From an uncultured Planctomycetales bacterium (GTDB lineage: Bacteria; Omnitrophota; Gorgyraeia; Aquiviventales; Aquiviventaceae): 64,000 bases of DNA. Numbering within the stretch: the first letter of the stretch is position 1; every line of letters begins with the position of its first letter. A model generated the notes under the pieces. It was not told where the DNA came from, searched no databases, and saw only the letters and a program-made list of their open reading frames with translations. Shown here piece by piece: positions 4,356 through 63,713 of this stretch. Both the position numbers and the translations under genes were made by a program. The stretch is from the NCBI GenBank assembly GCA_964556925.1, contig CAZKXY010000002.1:1953-65952 (forward strand), written 5' to 3'.

Positions 4356-5560
4356 TCGGCGCAGCCCTCGAACGCGAGCGGCTGCCGGCCGCTGGACTGG
4401 ATGCCATCCGGTGGCTGGTGCCGCGCCTGGTCCTGCCTCGACATGTCTGTTTTCGAGCCGGGTCGTTATCGATGCTGAAGCAGCTTGGCGCCCGCCGCGC
4501 GTTCGTGATCACTGGCCCTTCCTCGGCCAGGGCCTCTGGCGCCCTGGACAAGGTGCTCGGCCATGTGGTGAGCGGCGGGGGCGAGGCGGTCTGTTATGAC
4601 CGGATCGCCGGGGAGCCGACGTGGTCCAGGATTCGCGAAGGGGTGGAGGCCATGCGGGCGGCTGGACCGGACTGGATCATCGGGATCGGCGGGGGCTCGG
4701 TGCTGGATGCGGCCAAGCTCATGTATGCGTGGTACGAGCACCCTGCGCTGGAGCCGGCGGCCTGCGCGCGGCCCTTCAGCATCCCGCCGCTGCCGCGCCG
4801 CAGCCGGCTGGGGCTGATCCCGACCACCGCCGGCACGGGGTCCGAGGTGAGCTGCTCGGCCATCGTCCAGAATAGCGAGCGGCGGATCAAAGAGATCATC
4901 GTGTCGCACGAGCTGTTGCCGGATGTCGCGCTCCTGGACCCCTTGCTGACCGTCAGCCTGCCGGCGCCCATGACGGCCGCGACCGGGATGGATGCGTTGA
5001 CGCACGCCATCGAAGCCTTCGTGTCCCTGGCGCACAACCCGTTCACGGATGCGTGCGCCGCGGCGGCGGTGCGCCTCATCCTGTGCCACTTGCCGCCGGC
5101 CGTCCAGGATGGCAGCCGCCTGGAGGCGCGCGATGGCATGCTCCACGCCGCCTGCCTGGCCGGCATCGCCCAGAGCAATGTGTCTGTCGGGCTCGTCCAT
5201 GCGATCGCGCACAAGCTGGGGGCGATGGCGATGAGCCCGCTCCCGCACGGGGTGCTCAACAGCCTGATGCTGCTTCCGGTGATGCGGTTCAACGCCCAGG
5301 CGCAGCCCGGGCGGTACGAGGCGCTGGCCGTCGCATCCGGCTTCAGCGGATTCGAAGCGCTGGTGTCCGCGATCGAGCGCCTCCAGCAGGGGGCGCGGAT
5401 GCCCCGGCGCCTGAGCGCGGCCGCGCCGGCAGAGGAGCTGCTGGGACGCATGGACGAGCTCTGCCGGGACATCCTGGCGGATCCGTGCGCGCGGACCAAC
5501 CCGCGGTGCGCTTCGGCGGAGGACATCGCGCGGCTGCTCGAAGCCGCGCTGGCGGAGTGA
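4352..5560 (+). CDS. iron-containing (group III) alcohol dehydrogenase
   Basis: GIGGGSVLDAAKLM (GGGSxxD NAD motif) and metal-His region DALTHAIEAF. The ATG at 4352 forms an ATGA overlap with the ligase stop. Confidence 0.8.
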   Translation: MIGAALERERLPAAGLDAIRWLVPRLVLPRHVCFRAGSLSMLKQLGARRAFVITGPSSARASGALDKVLGHVVSGGGEAVCYDRIAGEPTWSRIREGVEAMRAAGPDWIIGIGGGSVLDAAKLMYAWYEHPALEPAACARPFSIPPLPRRSRLGLIPTTAGTGSEVSCSAIVQNSERRIKEIIVSHELLPDVALLDPLLTVSLPAPMTAATGMDALTHAIEAFVSLAHNPFTDACAAAAVRLILCHLPPAVQDGSRLEARDGMLHAACLAGIAQSNVSVGLVHAIAHKLGAMAMSPLPHGVLNSLMLLPVMRFNAQAQPGRYEALAVASGFSGFEALVSAIERLQQGARMPRRLSAAAPAEELLGRMDELCRDILADPCARTNPRCASAEDIARLLEAALAE

Positions 5561-7983
5561 TGGACTCGATCGAGGCCTTGTTGAGGCAGCCGCCGTTTGC
5601 GGCCGGTCCGGAGGAGAAAACGGCGCTGTTGGTGCCCGCGGTCCAGGCGGCGCTGCAACGTCATTACGAGCATTGCGCCGCCTTCAGGACCGTGTGCGAC
5701 ACGCGCAGGTTCGCGCCTGCGCGCGGTGTCTCTGATCTTGCCGCGATCCCGTATCTGCCGGCGCAGTTCTTCAAGCAGATGGCGCTCAGCACGAACGACG
5801 GGGGCGGGCCGACCGTGACGCTGCGGTCCAGTGCGACGACCTCCGGGGTCCCGAGCCAGATCGTCGTGGACGCCGTGACGGCCAGGCGGCACAAGCTCGC
5901 CGTGGTGTCGGTCCTCAAGAGTTACCTGGGGCCGGAGCGCCTGCCGTTCGTGGTGTTTGACGCCGACCCGTCGTTGCAGGGGCTGGCGCCCTCATCGCTT
6001 ACCGCGCGGGGGGCGGCGATCCGAGGGTTCCTCCTGGCCGCCAACGCGGTGGACTATGTGATGGTCGAAGAGGGGGAGGGCGGCCTCCGGCTGGACACAG
6101 AGCGGCTCGGGCGGACCCTGGCCCAATTCGGAGACGGCGAGCGGATGTGTCTCTTTGGCTTCACCGCACCCCTGTACCAGGCCATGCGCCAGGTCCTGGA
6201 AGGGAGCATGCGGTACTGGCTGCCGCAGGCGACGGTGCTGCATATCGGCGGCTGGAAGAAGCTGCAGCAGCAGGCCGTGACGAAATCCGCGTTCGCCGCG
6301 CTCATGGGCGAGACGGTTGGCGTGCCGCCCGACCGGGTGATCGACGTGTACGGATTCACCGAGCAGATCGGCATGATCTACCCGGACTGCGAGCAGGGGG
6401 TCAAGCATGCCCCGGTGTTCGCCGAGGTCATCGTGCGCGATCCGCGCACGCTCCAGCTGGCGGACGACGGCCAGGAGGGGCTGCTGCAGTTCATCTTCCC
6501 CGTCCCGCACAGCTACCCCGGGGTGTCGGTCATCACGGATGACGTGGGCCGGATTGTTGGGAGAGACCGGTGCGGCTGCGGGCGCCGCGGCACCGCCTTT
6601 GTCGTCTTGGGACGCGCGCCGGCGGCCGAGCCGCGCGGGTGCGGAGACCTGGCCCCGGCGCCTGCGGCGCTCGGGCCGCGTGACGCCATGGCGAGGCATG
6701 CCTTGTCGCAGGCCACGACTGAGCGCGAGCTCGCGCTCGACGAGCTGATCCAGGAGCTGCGCCGACACGCCGACGCGGTCCATGCGCTGGAGAGCGACCA
6801 GATCCTCGGCCTGCTCGGCGAGCTGCGCCGCGTCCTGGCTGACCCCGCCCACCCGCTGCACCAGCAGCTGCGGCCGCTCGGGCTGCCGTTCCTCTTGCGC
6901 TGGCTCGCGCCTGAGCGGCTTGCAGCCCAGTTGGATCTCGCGATGCACGGCACGCGCCGCTATCTGGATGCCTTTTTGCCGTCCGGGGACCGGCTGCTCC
7001 ATGCGCAGCCGCGCGGGCTCGTGGTGCACTGGATCGCCGGGAATGTGCCGCTCCTAGGCGTGTTCTCGCTCGTGCAGGCCTGGCTGACGAAAAACGTCAG
7101 CCTGATCAAGGTGCCGGCCGACTGGCCGGGCGTGATCCCCGCGCTGCTGGATACACTCTCGCAGGTGACGTATCTCGCGGCGGACGGCCGGGCGACCTCC
7201 GGGGTGGCGCTCGCGCGCGGCGCGGCGGCACTGTATGTCGATCGCGATGACCGCGCCGCCCAGGAAACACTCTCTCTGGCGGCGGATGCGCGGGTGGCGT
7301 GGGGCGGCCGCGAGGCCATTGAAGCGATCCAGGCGCTGCCGAAGGTGCCCGGCGTGGAAGACATCCTGTTCGGGCCCAAGTACTCGTACATGGTGATCGG
7401 CAGGGAACGTCTGGCGGCAGGGGCCGGGGTGCTCGACCTGGCCACGCGCGCCGCGTTCGACGTCTGCCTCTTCGACCAGCAGGGGTGCAACTCGCCGCAC
7501 ACCATCTTCGTCGAGCGGGGCGGGGCGGTGAGCCCCCGCGAGTTCGCCGCCAGGCTGGCCGAGGCCATGGAGCGGGTGTGCGCCACGATTCCGAAGGCTC
7601 CGCCCAGTCCGCAGGACGTCTCACGCCTGCTCACGCTGCGGGCGACGTATGACGTGCGCGGCCTCGCGCATTACTCCCCGGGGCCGGAGTGGACGGTGCT
7701 GTATGGGGAGGATGACGAGGGGTTGGCCGAGGCGTGCGGCGGCCGCGTGGCGTTCGTCCGGCCGATCGCGGACGCGATGGATGCGGCCGAGCTGGCCAGC
7801 CGGCGCACCCAATCGATCGGCGTGGCGTTGGACCACAGCCGCCGGATCGCGTTTGCCGAGCGGGCCACGTGGGGCGGGGCCGAACGCTGTCCCCCCGTCG
7901 GCGAGATGAGCCATTACGAATCGCCTTGGGACGGGGTCTTCATGATGGACCGGCTCGTGCGGTGGGTGACGACCTATGCGTAA
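5560..7983 (+). CDS. fused LuxE-like acyl-protein synthetase / LuxC-like acyl-CoA (acyl-ACP) reductase
   Basis: The N-terminal ~370 aa (QPPFAAGPEEKTALLVPAVQAALQRHYEHCAAFRTVC, SSATTSGVPSQIVVD, VIDVYGFTEQ, GCGRRGT) looks LuxE-like. The C-terminal ~430 aa (HWIAGNVPLLGVFSLVQAWLTKNVSLIKVP, FDQQGCNSPHTIFVE) looks LuxC-like. It is one uninterrupted frame. The ATG at 5560 shares 1 nt with the upstream TGA. Confidence 0.7.
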   Translation: MDSIEALLRQPPFAAGPEEKTALLVPAVQAALQRHYEHCAAFRTVCDTRRFAPARGVSDLAAIPYLPAQFFKQMALSTNDGGGPTVTLRSSATTSGVPSQIVVDAVTARRHKLAVVSVLKSYLGPERLPFVVFDADPSLQGLAPSSLTARGAAIRGFLLAANAVDYVMVEEGEGGLRLDTERLGRTLAQFGDGERMCLFGFTAPLYQAMRQVLEGSMRYWLPQATVLHIGGWKKLQQQAVTKSAFAALMGETVGVPPDRVIDVYGFTEQIGMIYPDCEQGVKHAPVFAEVIVRDPRTLQLADDGQEGLLQFIFPVPHSYPGVSVITDDVGRIVGRDRCGCGRRGTAFVVLGRAPAAEPRGCGDLAPAPAALGPRDAMARHALSQATTERELALDELIQELRRHADAVHALESDQILGLLGELRRVLADPAHPLHQQLRPLGLPFLLRWLAPERLAAQLDLAMHGTRRYLDAFLPSGDRLLHAQPRGLVVHWIAGNVPLLGVFSLVQAWLTKNVSLIKVPADWPGVIPALLDTLSQVTYLAADGRATSGVALARGAAALYVDRDDRAAQETLSLAADARVAWGGREAIEAIQALPKVPGVEDILFGPKYSYMVIGRERLAAGAGVLDLATRAAFDVCLFDQQGCNSPHTIFVERGGAVSPREFAARLAEAMERVCATIPKAPPSPQDVSRLLTLRATYDVRGLAHYSPGPEWTVLYGEDDEGLAEACGGRVAFVRPIADAMDAAELASRRTQSIGVALDHSRRIAFAERATWGGAERCPPVGEMSHYESPWDGVFMMDRLVRWVTTYA

Positions 7984-31018: not shown

Positions 31019-31118
31019 ACCCCACCACCTGTCTGCCTCCGCCGAAGGCGGAGGCTCGAGCGGCGGACAACGGTGACCGGTGCCGCCGGTGGCGGGACCG
31101 GAGGACAGGTGGTGGGGT
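31019..31118. repeat. 100-bp palindromic (MITE/REP-like) element with 15-bp perfect terminal inverted repeats
   Basis: ACCCCACCACCTGTC (31019-31033) and GACAGGTGGTGGGGT (31104-31118) are exact reverse complements. Internal hairpin GCCTCCGCC-GAA-GGCGGAGGC at 31035-31055. Lies in the 222-bp gap upstream of gmd. Confidence 0.8.
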
Positions 31119-32946: not shown

Positions 32947-33747
32947 ATGGCACGAACAGGGACGCTCGCCGTACCGGCTCTCCGGCGCCTGAAGACACGA
33001 GCCACGCAGCCGGTCGCCCTGATCACCGGAGGGACCTCCGGGATCGGGCGGGCGATCGCCGATCGCTTGCGCGCCCAGGGCTATCGCGTGGCGGTCTGCG
33101 CCCGGTCGCCGAAGGGCGCCTCGTTGCCGCGCGCCGTCCTGCACGCGAGCCTCGATGTGCGCGAGCGGGACGCGGTGCGCCGGTTTGTGGACACGGCCGT
33201 GGCGCGGTTCGGCCGGCTGGATGTCATGGTGAACTGCGCCGGCGTGTCCCGATGGCGGGCGATCGCAGACATCGATGAGGCCTTCGTGAGGGAGATCATC
33301 GACACGACGGTCTTGGGGACGCTGTGGGGCTGCGCGGCGGCGGCGGCGGTGTTGCGGCAGGGCGGCTGCATCGTGAACGTCTCCAGCCTCGCGGGCAAGC
33401 GCGGCAGCGCGAACAACAGCGTCTACTGCGCCGCGAAGTTCGCGGTGAACGGCCTCACCCAGGCCCTGGCGAAGGAGCTCGGCCCCCGCGGCATTCGGGT
33501 GAACGCGGTCTGTCCGGTCTACGTGGAGACCGCGCGCCTCCTCGCCGCGCTCGCCGAGCCGGCGTCGCCGGCGCATGGCCAGGGGGTCGGCGCGTACCTC
33601 GCGTCGTTCGCCTCGACCCAGACCGCGCTCGGCCGGTTGCCGACGGCCCAGGAGGTGGCGGAGGCCGTCGCGTTCCTGGTCAGCCCGGCCGCGTCGGCCA
33701 TCACCGGGCAATGTCTCAACGTGGACTGTGGTACATGCCCGCAATAG
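32947..33747 (+). CDS. short-chain dehydrogenase/reductase (SDR)
   Basis: VALITGGTSGIGRAIADRL, NCAG and YCAAKFAVNGLTQAL. Confidence 0.75.
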   Translation: MARTGTLAVPALRRLKTRATQPVALITGGTSGIGRAIADRLRAQGYRVAVCARSPKGASLPRAVLHASLDVRERDAVRRFVDTAVARFGRLDVMVNCAGVSRWRAIADIDEAFVREIIDTTVLGTLWGCAAAAAVLRQGGCIVNVSSLAGKRGSANNSVYCAAKFAVNGLTQALAKELGPRGIRVNAVCPVYVETARLLAALAEPASPAHGQGVGAYLASFASTQTALGRLPTAQEVAEAVAFLVSPAASAITGQCLNVDCGTCPQ

Positions 33748-33760
33748 GAGGCGTGGCGAG

Positions 33761-34519
33761 ATGAGCGCGGTCGATGTGTTGCGCCCACCGGTCCGTCTGG
33801 TGAGGGCGTGGGTGCGCCGGCACAACGGGTGGCTCATCAACGACCTGCAGCGCCGCTACAACTTCAATCAGCTGCAGCGCTTTGACGCGGTGCTCACCCG
33901 GCACGGCCGCTCCTTCAGGACGTGCTCCTCGATCTTTGACTTCGGCTGCGGGCCCGGCCGGCTGACCCAACACCTCGCCGCGCTGGCACCGGCGGCCTCG
34001 GTGTTCGGGTGCGACGTGCGCCGCGAGGCGGTCGCCGAGTGCCGGCGGCGGTGCCCGTGGGGCCGCTTCGTGGTCAACCGCGCCACCCCGCCCCTTGACG
34101 TGGAGGATGCGGCCTTCGACCTCATCTATTCCTACAGCGTCTTCACGCATCTGACCGAGCCCAACCACAAGGCGTGGCTGAAGGAGCTGGCGCGGATGCT
34201 GCAACCCGGCGGGGTGATGCTGCACACCGTGCATTCCTATGAGTACCTCAGGCGGACCGCGGCCTTCAGCCCTGAGAGCCTGGAGAAGTACCGGTTCACC
34301 GAGCCGGTGGACTCGTTCATCCGCAGCGGCCGCGACTACCTCTATGTGGTGGATGATCCGGCCACGCCGGAATACGGCTATACCGTCATGCGCAAGGAGT
34401 ACGTGCTGGACATCTGGCCGCGCGAGTCCGGTCTGGCGCTGGTCGATTACGTGGAGGGCGCGATCGAGTCCTACCCCGAAGGATGCCAGGATCTCGTCGT
34501 GCTGCAGAAGGGCGGATGA
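33761..34519 (+). CDS. class-I SAM-dependent methyltransferase
   Basis: IFDFGCGPGRLTQHLA (motif I) and LIYSYSVFTHL...LKELARMLQPGGVML. AGGAGG SD upstream of the ATG at 33761. Confidence 0.7.
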   Translation: MSAVDVLRPPVRLVRAWVRRHNGWLINDLQRRYNFNQLQRFDAVLTRHGRSFRTCSSIFDFGCGPGRLTQHLAALAPAASVFGCDVRREAVAECRRRCPWGRFVVNRATPPLDVEDAAFDLIYSYSVFTHLTEPNHKAWLKELARMLQPGGVMLHTVHSYEYLRRTAAFSPESLEKYRFTEPVDSFIRSGRDYLYVVDDPATPEYGYTVMRKEYVLDIWPRESGLALVDYVEGAIESYPEGCQDLVVLQKGG

Positions 34520-34534
34520 CGCGCATGCTCGCCA

Positions 34535-34649
34535 GCTGCGGGTGGCCAGGCCTCCGCGCGCCGCTCAGCGAATGTTGCTGCGCCCGGCTCATGACGAAAG
34601 CTCGCAACATTCGAATTCGCGGCGCGCGGAGCGCCTGGCCACCCGCAGC
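34535..34649. repeat. 115-nt extended hairpin nested in cassette A
   Basis: GCTGCGGGTGGCCAGG (34535-34550) pairs perfectly with CCTGGCCACCCGCAGC (34634-34649). CTCCGCGCGCCGC pairs with GCGGCGCGCGGAG. The inner stem CGAATGTTGC (34569-34578) pairs with GCAACATTCG (34604-34613), with a 25-nt loop. Absent from cassette B. Confidence 0.75.
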
Positions 34650-34670
34650 CAGCGCGCGGCCGGTCGCTCA

Positions 34671-34730
34671 AAAGGTGTCTGACACCTTTCCCGACGCCAG
34701 ACGAGCGGTCGACAGGTGTCTGACACCTGT
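34671..34730. promoter_or_regulatory. two perfect 19-nt palindromes 41 bp apart (operator- or REP-like)
   Basis: AAAGGTGTC-T-GACACCTTT (34671-34689) and ACAGGTGTC-T-GACACCTGT (34712-34730). Located ~90 nt upstream of the KdsB-like start. Confidence 0.6.
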
Positions 34731-34816
34731 TGCGATGCGCAGCGGCCTGCCTGCCGGGCAGGCAGGCAGGACCCGGCGGGCTAGCGTTAGGCCGGCAGGC
34801 TGAGGCGGGTGGGGGG

Positions 34817-36703
34817 ATGAGCCGCGTGCGCGTCGCCGCCATCATCCCGGCCCGCCTGGCCTCGCGCCGGTTTCCGGGAAAGCCGCTCGTGCCGGTCCAC
34901 GGGCTGCCGATGGTCGAGCATGTCCGCAGGCGCGCCCTGTTGTGCGGCCGGTTCACCGAGGTCGTGGTGGCGACCTGCGATCACGAGATCCGCGACGCGG
35001 TCGAGCGGTTCGGCGGGCGGTGCGCGATGACCTCTCCCGAGCACCCGGCGGCGACCGACCGCGTGGCGGAGGCCGCGCGGTCGCTCGACTGCACGCACGT
35101 GGTCAACGTGCAGGGGGATGAGATCCTCGTGCTGCCGGCGGATCTGGCGGCGTTCGTGGAGGCGATCGAGTCGGATCCCACCACCCCGGCCTGGAACGCC
35201 CTCGGCCGGATCGAGCAGGCGGAGGCGCTGCGCGACCGCGGCGTGGTCAAGTGCGTCATCTCCGCGTCCAGGCGGATCCTGTGTTGCGCGAGGGATTTTT
35301 CGGCGCTGCCGCTCGACGGGGCCGGCGGATGGGAGCCGGTCCGGGTCATCCTGGGGATCCTCGGCTACCGGCGGGATCTCCTCGAGCGGTACGGCCGGCT
35401 GGCGCGGACCCCGCTGGAGCGCGCGGAGGCGATCGATCAGTCGCGGCTCCTTGAGCATGATCTCACGCTCCGGGGGGTTGAGTTCAGCCGGGGCTATCCG
35501 GCGATCAACGAGCCGCAGGATGTCGCGCGGGTGCAGGCGTCTCTCGCGCGCGATCCGGGGCAACAGGCCGTGCTGCAGCAGGTGTTGGGGTCCCCCCACC
35601 TGGGCGCCACCCCACCTGTCTCAGCGTCGCCTTCGGCGAAACCGCCACAGGGACGTGGGCCGCTGGGCCCGCCAGCGACGGCCCAGACAGGTGGGGGGGC
35701 CAGCACGGCGGAACGAGCCTTGGACGGCCTGCCAAAGGCAGGCCGAGCACAGGTGGGGGGACGTCCCATTGTCTACGTGACGTTGCAGCAGTTCTGCGAG
35801 TTCGATGACCGGCCCCGCGAGGCGCTGCGGGACGCCGGGTTTGAGGTCAGGGAAAACCGCGTCGGCCGGCGCCTGCGCCAGGAGGAGCTGCCGGAGCTGC
35901 TGCGGGAGGCGGAGGCCGTGCTCGCGGGGGTGGAACCCTATCGCGCCGAGCTGCTGGAGGGTCTGCCCAAGCTGCGCTGCATCAGCCGCTGCGGGGTGGG
36001 GACGGACGCGATCGACCTGGCGGCCGCCCGCCGGCGCGGCGTTGCGGTGTACACGACGCCGGATGAGGTGGTGGAGCCGGCCGCGCAGCTGACGGTCGCC
36101 ATGATGCTCGCGCTGGCGAGGAACCTGCCGTGGCATGCGAGCGAGAGCCGCCAAGGATTGTGGACCAAACGGACGGGCAGGCTGCTGTCGGAGTGGACCA
36201 TCGGGTTGCTGGGCTTTGGGCGGATCGGCCGGCTCGTGGAGCGCTACCTGCGGGCGTTCGGTCCCGGGATCCTGGTGCATGACCCCGCGGTGCGCGCGGA
36301 TCTCCCGCCGGGGGTGGTCTGGCGCGAGCTGGACCCCCTGCTGGCCGAGTCCGACCTCGTCTCGCTCCACGCCGCCCGCCGCGCCGAGGAGGGGCCGCTC
36401 ATCGGCCCCCGCGAGCTGGCCCTCATGAAGCCAGGCAGCCTGCTCGTCAACACGGCGCGGGGGTTCCTGGTGGACGAAGCGGCGCTCGAGCAGTCGTTGC
36501 GCGCCGGGCAGCTCGGCGGGGCCGCGCTCGACGTGTTCGCCGAGGAGCCCTACACCGGGCCGCTCGCGCGGCTGCCGAACGTGCTGTGCACGCCCCATGT
36601 GGCCTCGCTCACGCGCGCCTCGCGGGCGTCGATGGAGCGGCGGGCGGCCGCCAACATTGTGGCGCATGTCGCGCAGATGGCGCCGGCGGGGATGTCCGGG
36701 TGA
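34817..36703 (+). CDS. KdsB-like CMP-ulosonic-acid cytidylyltransferase read through into a D-isomer-specific 2-hydroxyacid dehydrogenase (single open frame)
   Basis: N-terminal VAAIIPARLASRRFPGKPLVPVHGLPMVEHV and VVNVQGDE are KdsB-like. The C-terminal part (from ~35768) has LLGFGRIGRLVERYL, VNTARGFLVDEAAL, LDVFAEEP and TPHVAS. The ~60-codon linker (35590-35765) is encoded by palindromic repeat DNA. An alternative internal start for the dehydrogenase is ATT 35768 or GTG 35777, after a GGTGGGGGG run. Confidence 0.65.
   Translation: MSRVRVAAIIPARLASRRFPGKPLVPVHGLPMVEHVRRRALLCGRFTEVVVATCDHEIRDAVERFGGRCAMTSPEHPAATDRVAEAARSLDCTHVVNVQGDEILVLPADLAAFVEAIESDPTTPAWNALGRIEQAEALRDRGVVKCVISASRRILCCARDFSALPLDGAGGWEPVRVILGILGYRRDLLERYGRLARTPLERAEAIDQSRLLEHDLTLRGVEFSRGYPAINEPQDVARVQASLARDPGQQAVLQQVLGSPHLGATPPVSASPSAKPPQGRGPLGPPATAQTGGGASTAERALDGLPKAGRAQVGGRPIVYVTLQQFCEFDDRPREALRDAGFEVRENRVGRRLRQEELPELLREAEAVLAGVEPYRAELLEGLPKLRCISRCGVGTDAIDLAAARRRGVAVYTTPDEVVEPAAQLTVAMMLALARNLPWHASESRQGLWTKRTGRLLSEWTIGLLGFGRIGRLVERYLRAFGPGILVHDPAVRADLPPGVVWRELDPLLAESDLVSLHAARRAEEGPLIGPRELALMKPGSLLVNTARGFLVDEAALEQSLRAGQLGGAALDVFAEEPYTGPLARLPNVLCTPHVASLTRASRASMERRAAANIVAHVAQMAPAGMSG
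35592..35760. repeat. nested CCCCACCTGTC-type palindromic element(s) inside the KdsB-like/dehydrogenase ORF
   Basis: Inner pair ACCCCACCTGTC (35609-35620) / GACAGGTGGGGGGG (35686-35699). Outer pair CCCCCCACCTGG (35592-35603) / CACAGGTGGGGGG (35748-35760). Hairpin GGCCTGCC-AAA-GGCAGGCC at 35726-35744. Same terminal motif as 31019-31118. Confidence 0.75.
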
Positions 36704-36704
36704 C

Positions 36705-37445
36705 ATGAACGCGCTTCAGGGTTTCTTCTACCGCTACGGATGGGATACGCGCTGTCGGAACCTGTGCCCGGCGCGGCTCCTCCAGGCCGCGTTGCCGGCG
36801 TCCACGCGTCGCAGCCAGCCGACCCTCCTTGATGTCGGCTCCGGCGAGCTGGGCCTGTCGGCGTTCCTCCGCGGCCTGTCGGTGGTGGGCTCGGACCTGG
36901 CGCCCTCGCAGCCACGCAACGGCCGCTTCCGCTTTGTGCGGAGCACGGCGACCGCCCTGCCGTTCCGGGATGGCGCCTTTCCTGCGGTGAGCTGCATCGA
37001 CGTGCTCGAACATCTGGCCCCGGCGCGCCGGGCTGAGGCGATCACCGAATGCATCCGCGTCGCGTCGTCCCTCGTGCTGTTCGCGTTCCCGGATGGGCCG
37101 ACGGCGCACGCGTGCGACCAGGCGTTCCAGGAGGCCTGCCGTCTGCGCTCGCGCCAGGTCCCCGCGTGGGTGGAGGAGCATTTGCGGCACGAGTATCCGG
37201 CGTCCGACGGCGTGGCGGAACAGGTGCGGCAGGCCGCCGCCCGGTTGGGCCGACGGGCGCGTCTGACGGCATCCGCCTGCGAGCCGCTGGCGATTTGCCG
37301 CCTGGTCCGCGCCGCCGCGAGCCGCTCCACGCTCCTCTACGCGCTGTGCAACCTCTGGTTCGGGCTGTGCGCGCCCCTCCTGCGCCCGCCGCGGCCGGGC
37401 GACGGGTACCGGACGGTGCTGCTCGCGGAGCTGACCCCGTCATGA
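36705..37445 (+). CDS. class-I SAM-dependent methyltransferase
   Basis: LLDVGSGELGLSAFL (motif I) and LPFRDGAFPAVSCIDVLEHL. Confidence 0.65.
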   Translation: MNALQGFFYRYGWDTRCRNLCPARLLQAALPASTRRSQPTLLDVGSGELGLSAFLRGLSVVGSDLAPSQPRNGRFRFVRSTATALPFRDGAFPAVSCIDVLEHLAPARRAEAITECIRVASSLVLFAFPDGPTAHACDQAFQEACRLRSRQVPAWVEEHLRHEYPASDGVAEQVRQAAARLGRRARLTASACEPLAICRLVRAAASRSTLLYALCNLWFGLCAPLLRPPRPGDGYRTVLLAELTPS

Positions 37446-45446: not shown

Positions 45447-45720
45447 CGCGCATGCCCGCCAGCTGCGGGGTGGGCTCGCCTGCGGGGCGCGGCGTCGCTC
45501 CGGCCGCCCAGCGTGCGGCCGGTCGCTCAAAAGGTGTCAGATACTGCTCTGTCGAAAAGCCGCGGTTCCAGAGCAAAAAGTGTCAGACACGTTTCCCGCT
45601 GCGAGACGACAGGTCAAAAGGTGTCTGACACTTTTTGCGATGCGCAGCGGCCTGCCGGCCAGGCAGGACCCGGCGGGCTAGCGTTAGACCGGCGGGCTGA
45701 GGTGGGGAGAGGATGACGCG
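45441..45720 (+). repeat. composite intergenic cassette B flanked by a perfect 10-bp direct repeat GGATGACGCG
   Basis: GGATGACGCG at 45441-45450 contains the upstream TGA. The same 10-mer at 45711-45720 contains the downstream ATG. The two copies are 270 bp apart. The interior is homologous to cassette A and carries three GTGTC-N-GACAC half-palindromic sites centred at 45539, 45585 and 45626. Confidence 0.8.
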
Positions 45721-62546: not shown

Positions 62547-62579
62547 TCGCTTCGTCGGGCGTGTTCAACAGGTGGGGGG

Positions 62580-63713
62580 ATGACCGTCACGCAGCGGACG
62601 TGGGTTGACGAACTTCAGGCGTTGGTGACGAACCGCCTGGATCCCGCGGCGCTGGGCGAGCGCCGCTTCGCGGCGATCCTGGGCGATGTCCCCTCGACGT
62701 ACGCCAAGAGCCCTCGGCTGTGGAACGCGGCCTTCGCGGCCCTGGGCCTGCCGGCGGCGTTCGTGCCGCTGGATATCCCCCCGGGCCGCCTGCCGGAGGT
62801 CGTGCGGGCGCTTCGCGAGCGCGACGCGTGGCTGGGCGGAAGCGTGACCGTGCCGTACAAGACGCAGATCATCCCCCTGCTCGATGCGGTGGAGCCGATG
62901 GCCGCGCGCATCGGGGCGGTGAACGTCGTCGTTCGCGAAGCCGACGGCCGCCTCGTGGGGCACAACACCGACGGCCGGGCCGGGGTGCGGGCGTTGACCG
63001 ACGACGTCCTTCCCGGAAGCCCGCCGCCCCTTGAGCGCCTCGCAGGCGCCCGGGTCTTGTTGATCGGCGGCGGCGGGGCGGCCCAGGCGATGGCGTGTCA
63101 TCTCTGGGAGGCGCTTGGTGATGGCGAGCTGTTGATCGCCACTCGCGCGCGCCAGCAGGCGGAGCACCTGATCCAGCGGCTGGCCGCGATGCGGCCAGGC
63201 CGGCTGGCAGCCATCGACGACGCGGAGATTTCTCACCGCGCGCCGGGCATGGATCTGGTGGTCAACGCGACCCTCAAAGGCCAAGCCGGCATCCGCACCC
63301 TGTCGGACGGGCGCCGCACGACACTGGAACCGTATTCCGCGCTCGCGCCGGCCGCTCCGGCCGCGGTGGCTGCGACGGAGGGGTCCGACGAGGGCGCGTT
63401 CTTCGAGGCGTGGTATCGGGGGTCGTCGGCGGATCTGTGGCAGAACCAGGAGCGGTCGCTCGCGCTCTGCGCGCGCCTGCCGCGCCAGACCCTCTGCTAC
63501 GACATCATCTACGCGCCGCCGGAAACGGTCTTCTTGCGCCATGCCCGCTGGAGCGGTCACCGGACCCTGAACGGCAAAGCCATGAACGTCGCGCAGGCGG
63601 TGGACGCCTTCACGCGATACGTCTGCCGCGACTGGCTGCGGGATTTCGGGAGGGATCCGGACGACGCGCCCCGGCAGGTCGCACACGCGATGGCGGAGGC
63701 GTGGGGGCGATGA
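62580..63713 (+). CDS. shikimate/quinate-dehydrogenase-family (AroE-like) oxidoreductase, long form
   Basis: SPRLWNAAFAALGLPAAFVPLDI, GGSVTVPYKTQIIPLLD, NTDGRAGVRAL and LLIGGGGAAQAM. At 377 aa it is longer than I expect for this family, with an apparent insertion near residues 255-300. Confidence 0.65.
   Translation: MTVTQRTWVDELQALVTNRLDPAALGERRFAAILGDVPSTYAKSPRLWNAAFAALGLPAAFVPLDIPPGRLPEVVRALRERDAWLGGSVTVPYKTQIIPLLDAVEPMAARIGAVNVVVREADGRLVGHNTDGRAGVRALTDDVLPGSPPPLERLAGARVLLIGGGGAAQAMACHLWEALGDGELLIATRARQQAEHLIQRLAAMRPGRLAAIDDAEISHRAPGMDLVVNATLKGQAGIRTLSDGRRTTLEPYSALAPAAPAAVAATEGSDEGAFFEAWYRGSSADLWQNQERSLALCARLPRQTLCYDIIYAPPETVFLRHARWSGHRTLNGKAMNVAQAVDAFTRYVCRDWLRDFGRDPDDAPRQVAHAMAEAWGR

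Follow-up and report, generated by a model that had tools for sequence, protein, structure and literature searches.

A small palindromic repeat, probably mobile and MITE-like, as the bridge between a KdsB-like cytidylyltransferase and a 2-hydroxyacid dehydrogenase in one open reading frame

Introduction

The Rickettsia palindromic elements (RPEs), of ~100-150 nucleotides (nt), lie in frame within genes and are translated as an extra peptide that the host protein tolerates (PMC10969869). Several transposable elements of the miniature inverted-repeat type (MITEs) give rise to in-frame fusions or 3' extensions after an indel has deleted a stop codon, as QMITE2 does at the Coxiella enhC gene (PMC5896051, PMC3184786, PMC10969869). 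The mycobacterial interspersed repetitive units (MIRUs) are intercistronic, with ends that overlap the adjacent stop and start codons and tetranucleotide direct repeats that flank the filled sites, and the Neisseria REP2 repeat carries a ribosome-binding site plus an ATG (PMC3184786). The present analysis concerns a small palindromic repeat element in a 64,000-nt stretch of contig CAZKXY010000002.1 (positions 1,953 to 65,952; assembly GCA_964556925.1, an uncultured bacterium placed in the Omnitrophota), hereafter called the window. The element is probably mobile and MITE-like, and a double copy of it would form the spacer that fuses a KdsB-like cytidylyltransferase gene and a D-isomer 2-hydroxyacid dehydrogenase (DH) gene into a single open reading frame (ORF).

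Each of the described systems resembles the element in part. Like the RPEs, it has copies in frame, namely in the gene of ATP synthase gamma, in an ORF with radical-SAM and methyltransferase domains, and in the window fusion, a likeness that may be regarded as a functional analogy. Unlike the RPEs, it occurs in other host phyla, is GC-rich, and usually sits at an operon junction rather than in the interior of a gene; moreover, the window copy bridges two formerly separate genes and does not form a loop of one protein. With the bacterial MITEs (Coxiella QMITE2, Correia/NEMIS, ERIC, BOX, Nezha) it shares terminal inverted repeats, a small size, the lack of a transposase gene, and a dispersed distribution, as well as very stable predicted folds, empty and filled orthologous sites, and ORF extension through a lost stop. 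In the window, however, the result is neither a tail nor an internal insert but a bifunctional ORF that spans two enzymes.

As with the MIRUs, the element is found between operon genes and its canonical flanks read ATGA...ATGA, but MIRUs are tandem direct repeats with imperfect inverted repeats, whereas the element consists of single units with 15-nt terminal inverted repeats and two hairpins. Its right arm, in canonical copies the Shine-Dalgarno (SD)-like AGGTGGGGGG followed by ATG, recalls Neisseria REP2 and the Borrelia IR repeats. REP2, by contrast, has no terminal inverted repeats and has a promoter, while a scan of positions 34500-36900 around the fused gene finds no promoter-like or terminator-like site. 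REP and REPIN sequences, which go with a RAYT transposase in the genome, are imperfect palindromes of 20-40 nt, often in inverted doublets, and the arms and two unrelated hairpins of the element do not take this doublet form. The family combines traits of RPEs/MITEs, MIRUs, and REP2 in other, uncultured lineages, and it appears to be undescribed, with no match in Rfam or in the literature searched.

The Fused Reading Frame

The frame that opens at ATG 34817 continues uninterrupted on the forward strand to a TGA ending at 36703. Translation gives 628 residues without a stop, which bears out the preliminary description of this frame as open. In the product, CTP_transf_3 occupies residues 7-214 and 2-Hacid_dh/2-Hacid_dh_C residues 335-620 (Pfam), and the KdsB models of NCBIfam reach approximately residue 245. 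By these profiles the N-terminal enzyme is classed as KdsB-like: the fused ORF passes the KdsB subfamily model NF003952 (194.9 against a cut-off of 193) and stays below the cut-offs of NF009905 (201 against 255) and of the equivalog TIGR00466 (112 against 155.2). The DH domains lie above the Pfam gathering score (PF02826, 158 bits; PF00389, 73.9 bits), and the specific DH equivalogs of NCBIfam (PGDH, GhrB, and others) all score below their cut-offs for this ORF.

The KdsB part terminates in ...AVLQQVLG, at or near the ends of its orthologues, and the C-termini of P0004, P0007, and the L060 protein (P and L denote protein and locus handles) align to this edge. Both domains are full length, without stops or frameshifts, and display normal GC contents by codon position (0.76/0.50/0.91 in the KdsB part, 0.77/0.50/0.93 in the DH part). 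In the AlphaFold model the DH has a per-residue confidence score (pLDDT) above 90 from about residue 317. The KdsB half is poorly modelled because its alignment is shallow, with few homologues.

The Spacer as a Double Copy of the Element

From its sequence, the spacer between the domains is a double (nested or rearranged) copy of the element. The inserted DNA extends from T35591 to A35761, exactly 171 nt, which refines the earlier coordinates 35592-35760. The preliminary description had taken the stretch to be made of nested inverted repeats with an additional hairpin around AAA, and three sets of inverted repeats are indeed found (Table 1). The outer arms are of the GTC...GAC type, as in the copies at L028, L029, and L040. 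The inner copy aligns with 16 other copies of the element and is matched by a covariance model at 35606-35699 with 56.7 bits, this copy having belonged to the training set of the model. The hairpin at 35725-35745 adjoins the right arm on its 5' side, a position that it also has in canonical copies, for example at L008; it is not an intrinsic terminator, being followed by GAGCACAGG with no T-run. The double copy is nested and inverted, not head-to-tail. The motif CCCCACCTG has five occurrences in the window where 0.75 would be expected, a count reached in 0 of 100 shuffles, and four of the five lie within the 170-nt spacer stretch.

The peptide encoded by the spacer is rich in Pro, Gly, Ala, Ser, and Thr. 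Residues 258-296 have no secondary structure in the AlphaFold model (pLDDT ~30), a low confidence that is weakly informative because the KdsB half is itself poorly modelled. The spacer has codon-position GC values of 0.79/0.75/0.68 and thus lacks the coding signature of the flanking domains, in which GC at the third position (GC3) is 0.91-0.93. The fusion therefore appears to be recent, and the spacer to be non-coding DNA read in frame.

The predicted RNA fold of the spacer is a single nested structure at -127.5 kcal/mol, with z = -8.1 relative to shuffles. RNase III processing is known for the Correia elements of Neisseria. The two cistrons of the window could in principle be separated in the same way, by cuts in the GC-rich stems of 16 bp, or by ribosomes that bypass the structured insert, so that the spacer peptide would not be made as written. 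The very stable nested stems would suit such a mechanism, and for QMITE2 it has been proposed that RNase III processes the stems of co-transcribed MITEs (PMC5896051). However, cleavage would leave the KdsB message without a stop and the DH message without an ATG, a costly outcome that is probably selected against, and for bypass there is no matching pair of take-off and landing codons with a stop, the flanks being GGG on the left and CGT on the right. Separation at the RNA level is thus very improbable.

Orthologous Junctions

A metagenome scan with the DH alignment yields 67 loci, to which the DH part of the fusion is 58-72% identical. Forty of these have a KdsB-like orthologue directly upstream of the DH on the same strand (53-69% identity across residues 1-258), so that the pairing represents a conserved operon unit. 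The first impression that a CMP-transferase and a dehydrogenase form an unusual pair does not hold, given these 40 loci and a natural fusion in reverse order. The sequences instead point to an old, conserved pair of adjacent genes that normally overlap by a few bases. The reverse-order fusion (P0004, 594 residues) resembles the window ORF in uniting the same two domain families in one protein and in lying in a glycan-type gene cluster. It differs in the order of the domains, in having a distantly related DH, and in that no element copy is found in its locus. At L001 a CTP_transf_3 gene also stands beside a dehydrogenase, but it is a different paralogue with a HAD gene in between, and was excluded from the orthologous junctions.

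The comparison with orthologues, proposed in the preliminary description, reveals separate or overlapping genes, unfused at 39 of the 40 junctions; the window alone is fused. About 25 junctions show an overlap of the ATGA or GTGA type or an ATG embedded in the 3' end of the KdsB gene, and at a few the genes are 20-56 nt apart. No element is present at the junction of the closest relatives (L062, L064, L071, L073, and L114; 70-72% identical), which reads ..GGC GCA TGG CCC GYC.. and where KdsB stops 16 nt into the DH gene (at +16 in L062, L071, L073, and L114, and as TAG at the same offset in L064). A database search found no other protein with the KdsB-then-DH domain order and matched standalone dehydrogenases (P0002, 66% identity; P0003, 60%). 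Neither this search nor the 40 junctions contain an orthologue that conserves the linker peptide, in keeping with the preliminary view of the linker as repeat DNA.

Empty and filled states of the same site can be compared directly. Of the junctions, 37 lack any comparable insert, two (L060 and the window) are occupied by the element, and one (L092) by another insert. The L060 junction contains a single canonical copy, caATGA/TCCCACCACCTGCT...AGCAGGTGGTGGG/ATGAcc (TCCCACC...GGTGGG), with the KdsB stop and the DH start intact. The nearest relatives of the window and of L060 are without the element, and for this reason the two occupancies are probably independent. In L060 the gene caller began the DH (P0003) at the left-flank ATG, which adds a false N-terminal extension of 25 residues, MIPPPANSPKVNANARPSGPKAGGG (L060 248-322); the element family can therefore systematically mislead gene annotation. 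The insert in L092 (2562-2757) is a different sequence of 194 nt, GC-rich and hairpin-rich, through which the KdsB gene reads, gaining a ~62-residue tail and ending just short of the DH ATG. Elsewhere in this locus, at 6456-6554, there is a canonical copy of the element.

Origin of the Fusion

Once the 171 nt are removed, the window reads GTG TTG GGG CGT CCC ATT. Its left flank (GGG/TCCCCCC) has no TGA and its right flank (GGGGGGA/CGT) no ATG, and in comparison with the closest relatives approximately 8 nt, including the DH ATG, seem to be absent. One reading in the preliminary description was that insertion of a repeat had removed the stop and created the fusion. At the DNA level this stands, with a copy of the element in the window and unfused orthologues elsewhere. 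The element alone removed no stop, however, because the TGA of the relatives persists out of frame (Table 1). In the scenario preferred here, the element would have landed in the kdsB-like/DH overlap in the lineage of the window, and a net loss of ~8 nt alongside it, DH ATG included, would have set the KdsB frame into the DH frame, skirting the old stop. The 628-residue fusion would then be the main and functional product, because the DH lacks an ATG start and any ribosome that initiates on KdsB, meeting no stop codon, must make the fusion.

Several points weigh against this scenario. Three in-frame non-ATG codons (GTG 35753, ATT 35768, and GTG 35777) are candidate starts in or after the SD-like arm. 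Within a coding region, a structure of -127 kcal/mol could hinder translation or be targeted by RNase III. Except at one contig end, the assemblies with the fusion are 99.99-100% identical and amount to essentially one population; such near-clonal recurrence says nothing about long-term retention under selection. A fusion this young could be a neutral or mildly harmful accident. Finally, mobility is deduced from empty and filled sites and from the distribution of copies, and the order of insertion and then deletion is a reconstruction.

The start candidates raise the question of whether the DH is mainly made as a separate protein from one of these three codons, with the right arm as its SD and the fusion as a by-product. 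In canonical copies the right arm, AGGTGG(G/T)GGG, does stand directly 5' of the downstream ATG; in the window ATT 35768 lies 7 nt past the G-run, and GTG 35753, which the preliminary description did not list, yields an N-terminus similar to those of orthologues (MARPI.., MRKPAVYV). A non-ATG start would nevertheless be required, whereas all 21 genes called in 25400-46700 start with ATG (nine with an ATGA overlap with the preceding gene, two with a 1-nt overlap). The SD of GTG 35753 is weak, GTG 35777 is 16 nt from the G-run, and in the predicted fold the SD-like arm is paired in a 16-bp stem. The promoter scan gives no internal promoter-like site, and without a stop each ribosome arriving from KdsB would still yield the fusion. 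Internal initiation as the main source of the DH is therefore rather unlikely.

The spacer, with its C6 and G6-7 homopolymers and nested repeats, is of a kind prone to error, and all data are metagenome assemblies; a repeat-induced misassembly, or an indel in a G/C run, might thus hide the true stop and start. Against this, the identical 628-residue protein is found in JGI 3300022563, JGI 3300025157, and ENA ERZ27245685; different pipelines thus arrived independently at one sequence for at least three samples. A strain variant with one distant residue change is also fused, and at least four assemblies carry the fusion. The recurrence argues against an assembly error, and a sequencing error that conceals a stop, which the preliminary description had considered, does not apply to a fused sequence that is identical across assemblies from different samples. 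In addition, a return to the ancestral state needs a change of ~8 nt, not a 1-nt indel. An artefact is hence most improbable.

Loci L002 and L004 are identical to the window, and L003 differs at one contig end and at three distant sites, so that strain variation is uninformative on selection in the spacer. The L003 end (1-420, window 33232-33630), from an ENA contig, shows ~80% identity to the window for ~400 nt, beyond which the two are identical; this suggests a recombinant or chimeric join within a short-chain dehydrogenase gene (32947-33747).

It is also conceivable that the fusion, or the loss of the DH start, impairs one or both enzymes and that the locus is decaying after a recent non-adaptive accident. 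The absence of codon adaptation in the spacer (GC3 0.68 against 0.91-0.93), the single fused case among 40 orthologous junctions, and the restriction to one near-clonal population would all agree with this. On the other hand, both domains are intact and 58-72% identical to their orthologues throughout, the composition of the spacer and its lack of predicted secondary structure suit a flexible linker, the same domain families are naturally fused in P0004, and in-frame copies are tolerated even in ATP synthase gamma. Decay is accordingly judged unlikely, and the fusion through a double copy of the element remains the preferred interpretation.

Table 1. Coordinates in the window of the fused gene, its spacer, and other copies or remnants of the element.
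Feature	Position	Strand	Remarks
KdsB-like cytidylyltransferase part	34817..35590	+	Residues 1-258; from Pfam, NCBIfam, and orthologue alignment
Element-derived spacer TCCCCCC...GGGGGGA	35591..35761	+	171 nt, 57 codons; translation SPHLGATPPVSASPSAKPPQGRGPLGPPATAQTGGGASTAERALDGLPKAGRAQVGG
Outer left arm GTCCCCCCACCTGGGC	35590..35605	+	Inverted repeat, 16 nt, 94% complementary to 35747-35762
Inner complete element copy	35606..35700		Arms 35606-35621 and 35685-35700 (16 nt, 94%), two imperfect hairpins between them
Hairpin CGGCCTGCC-AAA-GGCAGGCCG	35725..35745		Hairpin-2 position of the outer copy, directly 5' of the right arm
Outer right arm GCACAGGTGGGGGGAC	35747..35762	+	SD-like AGGTGGGGGG, then ACG instead of the canonical ATG
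In-frame GTG in right arm, candidate internal start	35753..35755	+	Product MGGRPIVYVT; upstream SD weak
D-isomer 2-hydroxyacid dehydrogenase part	35762..36703	+	RPIVYVTL... to stop; from Pfam and NCBIfam
In-frame ATT, candidate internal start	35768..35770	+	7 nt after the G-run; best SD spacing; rare start codon
Relic TGA	35778..35780	+	+1 frame, 16 nt into DH, where KdsB of the closest relatives stops; unread by the fused frame
Second complete element copy	31019..31117		Intergenic, between stop 30965 and ATG 31188; first indicated by local BLAST of the spacer
Solo right arm ACAGGTGGGGGG	62568..62579	+	Abuts ATG 62580 of a shikimate-dehydrogenase-like gene (62580-63713)

The Element Family

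Copies of the element measure 69-103 nt overall and share the anatomy TCCC(C/A)CCACCTGTCT, hairpin 1, spacer, hairpin 2, AGACAGGTGG(G/T)GGGA. The terminal inverted repeats of 15-17 nt are conserved over 27 copies, with covariation at the C/A...T/G position, and the two internal hairpins are GC-rich and variable between copies. The consensus of 17 aligned copies forms a 15-bp closing stem and two hairpins, with compensatory changes in 7 of 28 pairs, and individual copies fold with z values of -7 to -9.6.

The pattern CCACCTGTCT-N50-80-GACAGGTGG, run against one genome per species (596 Gb), gives 55 loci, a total comparable to the ~100 single hits expected by chance on a rough estimate of the author from 19 fixed bases. 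Approximately 30 of the 55 fall in a few high-GC Omnitrophota metagenome-assembled genomes (MAGs; JACPSQ01, JACPSR01, MHGT01, MHGA01, and JACQRD01), a few Planctomycetales MAGs, and one Elusimicrobia MAG, and these clustered loci share one anatomy. About 14 element loci come from the single Omnitrophota MAG JACPSQ01.

Two loci lie in the window, the spacer and a second complete copy at 31019-31117, whose RNA folds at -76 kcal/mol (z = -7.5) and whose arms and flanks are nearly identical to those of the copy at the Omnitrophota MAG locus L025. The covariance model, which was built from the copy alignment with both window copies in training and run without filters on the window, matches this copy with 76.1 bits and detects no further copy in the window beyond the two trained on (next best match, E = 0.055). 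The solo right arm near the end of the window may be what is left of a copy and may now provide the SD for the gene behind it. Rfam 15 has no match in the window at the gathering score and returns tRNAs only in eight element-carrying loci; at an E-value threshold, the matches in the window and the element loci are at chance level.

The usual setting of the element is narrowly defined. For 11 of ~28 copies, one long ORF ends with its TGA exactly at the left edge, and another on the same strand begins with its ATG exactly at the right edge. In canonical copies the left arm abuts the upstream TGA and the SD-like right arm the downstream ATG, so that the flanks read ...ATGA/TCCCCCC ... GGGGGG/ATGA.... 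The interior of the element is found in both orientations relative to the genes and the flanks keep the direction of the genes, which places the flanks outside the inverted repeat, as target or selected sequence. Many copies have matching flanks (TGA...TGA or ATGA...ATGA, and TGG...TGG in L050), and the GTC...GAC-type copies, the window outer arms among them, have none. As target-site duplications, TGA, ATGA, TGG, GA, or none at all each fit some copies, and the flanks may reflect selection on stop and start codons.

Two copies outside the window are also read in frame. In the gene for ATP synthase gamma (PF00231) of an Omnitrophota MAG (L006 5658-6710), a copy of 33 residues lies inside the domain and reads ..CSEW/SHHLSG...RQVVG/EML... 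An ORF of 865 residues at L050 (4389-6986) has a radical-SAM domain, an in-frame copy at residues 304-337 flanked by the duplicated TGG, and a C-terminal methyltransferase domain; it may be a further fusion associated with the element, or a protein that already had both domains when the element was inserted. One reading frame of the element is common to L006 atpG, L050, and the window, namely S-(P/H)-H-L ... Q-V-(V/G)-G, which in the window becomes SPHL...AQVGG.

A speculative and rather doubtful proposal, drawn from the position of the arms, is that the element acts as a portable translational-coupling cassette, of which the window copy would have lost the stop and the start and become an interdomain linker. 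The arms would pair in a 15-bp stem that hides the SD and the start codon, and a ribosome terminating at the TGA would melt the left arm, exposing SD and ATG when the upstream gene is translated. Neutral insertion at TGA and subsequent purifying selection also explain the pattern of copies abutting stop and start codons.

Surrounding Gene Cluster

From its gene content, the entire 64-kb window looks like a single glycan-biosynthesis island; among its genes are two asparagine-synthase paralogues and, at 5053-7983, a LuxE-LuxC fusion-like ORF. The genes in 25400-46700 are packed very closely. A leader of ~180 nt 5' of the fused gene (34640-34816) is ~85-90% identical to 45530-45712, 5' of the gene at 45713. 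In each leader the perfect palindrome GGTGTC-T-GACACC is present two times, along with a hairpin, GGCCTGCC...GGCAGG, and a G-rich SD that precedes ATGA, and the two look like a duplicated promoter/operator for two glycan-island operons. Region 34705-34816, with a CAGGTG palindrome, the GGCCTGCC hairpin, and GGGTGGGGGGATGA, was considered as a degenerate third copy of the element and rejected, as it belongs to this separate duplicated leader/operator with its GGTGTC-T-GACACC palindrome. Its fold is unexceptional (z = -1.8).

Implications

A repeat that bridges two enzymes into one ORF is a neat rather than a surprising case. Its value is that related sequences display the ancestral gene overlap, a state that resembles an intermediate (L060), and the fusion itself in the window, and that non-coding repeat DNA, still without a coding signature, can be recognized as the source of the linker. 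The window would be an unusually well-documented natural case of two neighbouring pathway enzymes becoming one bifunctional ORF. The family resides in poorly studied, uncultured high-GC lineages, favours operon junctions, and brings an SD-like sequence beside the start codon. If the coupling proposal were true, the window would show a gene fusion caught in the act, and the element would be more than selfish DNA.

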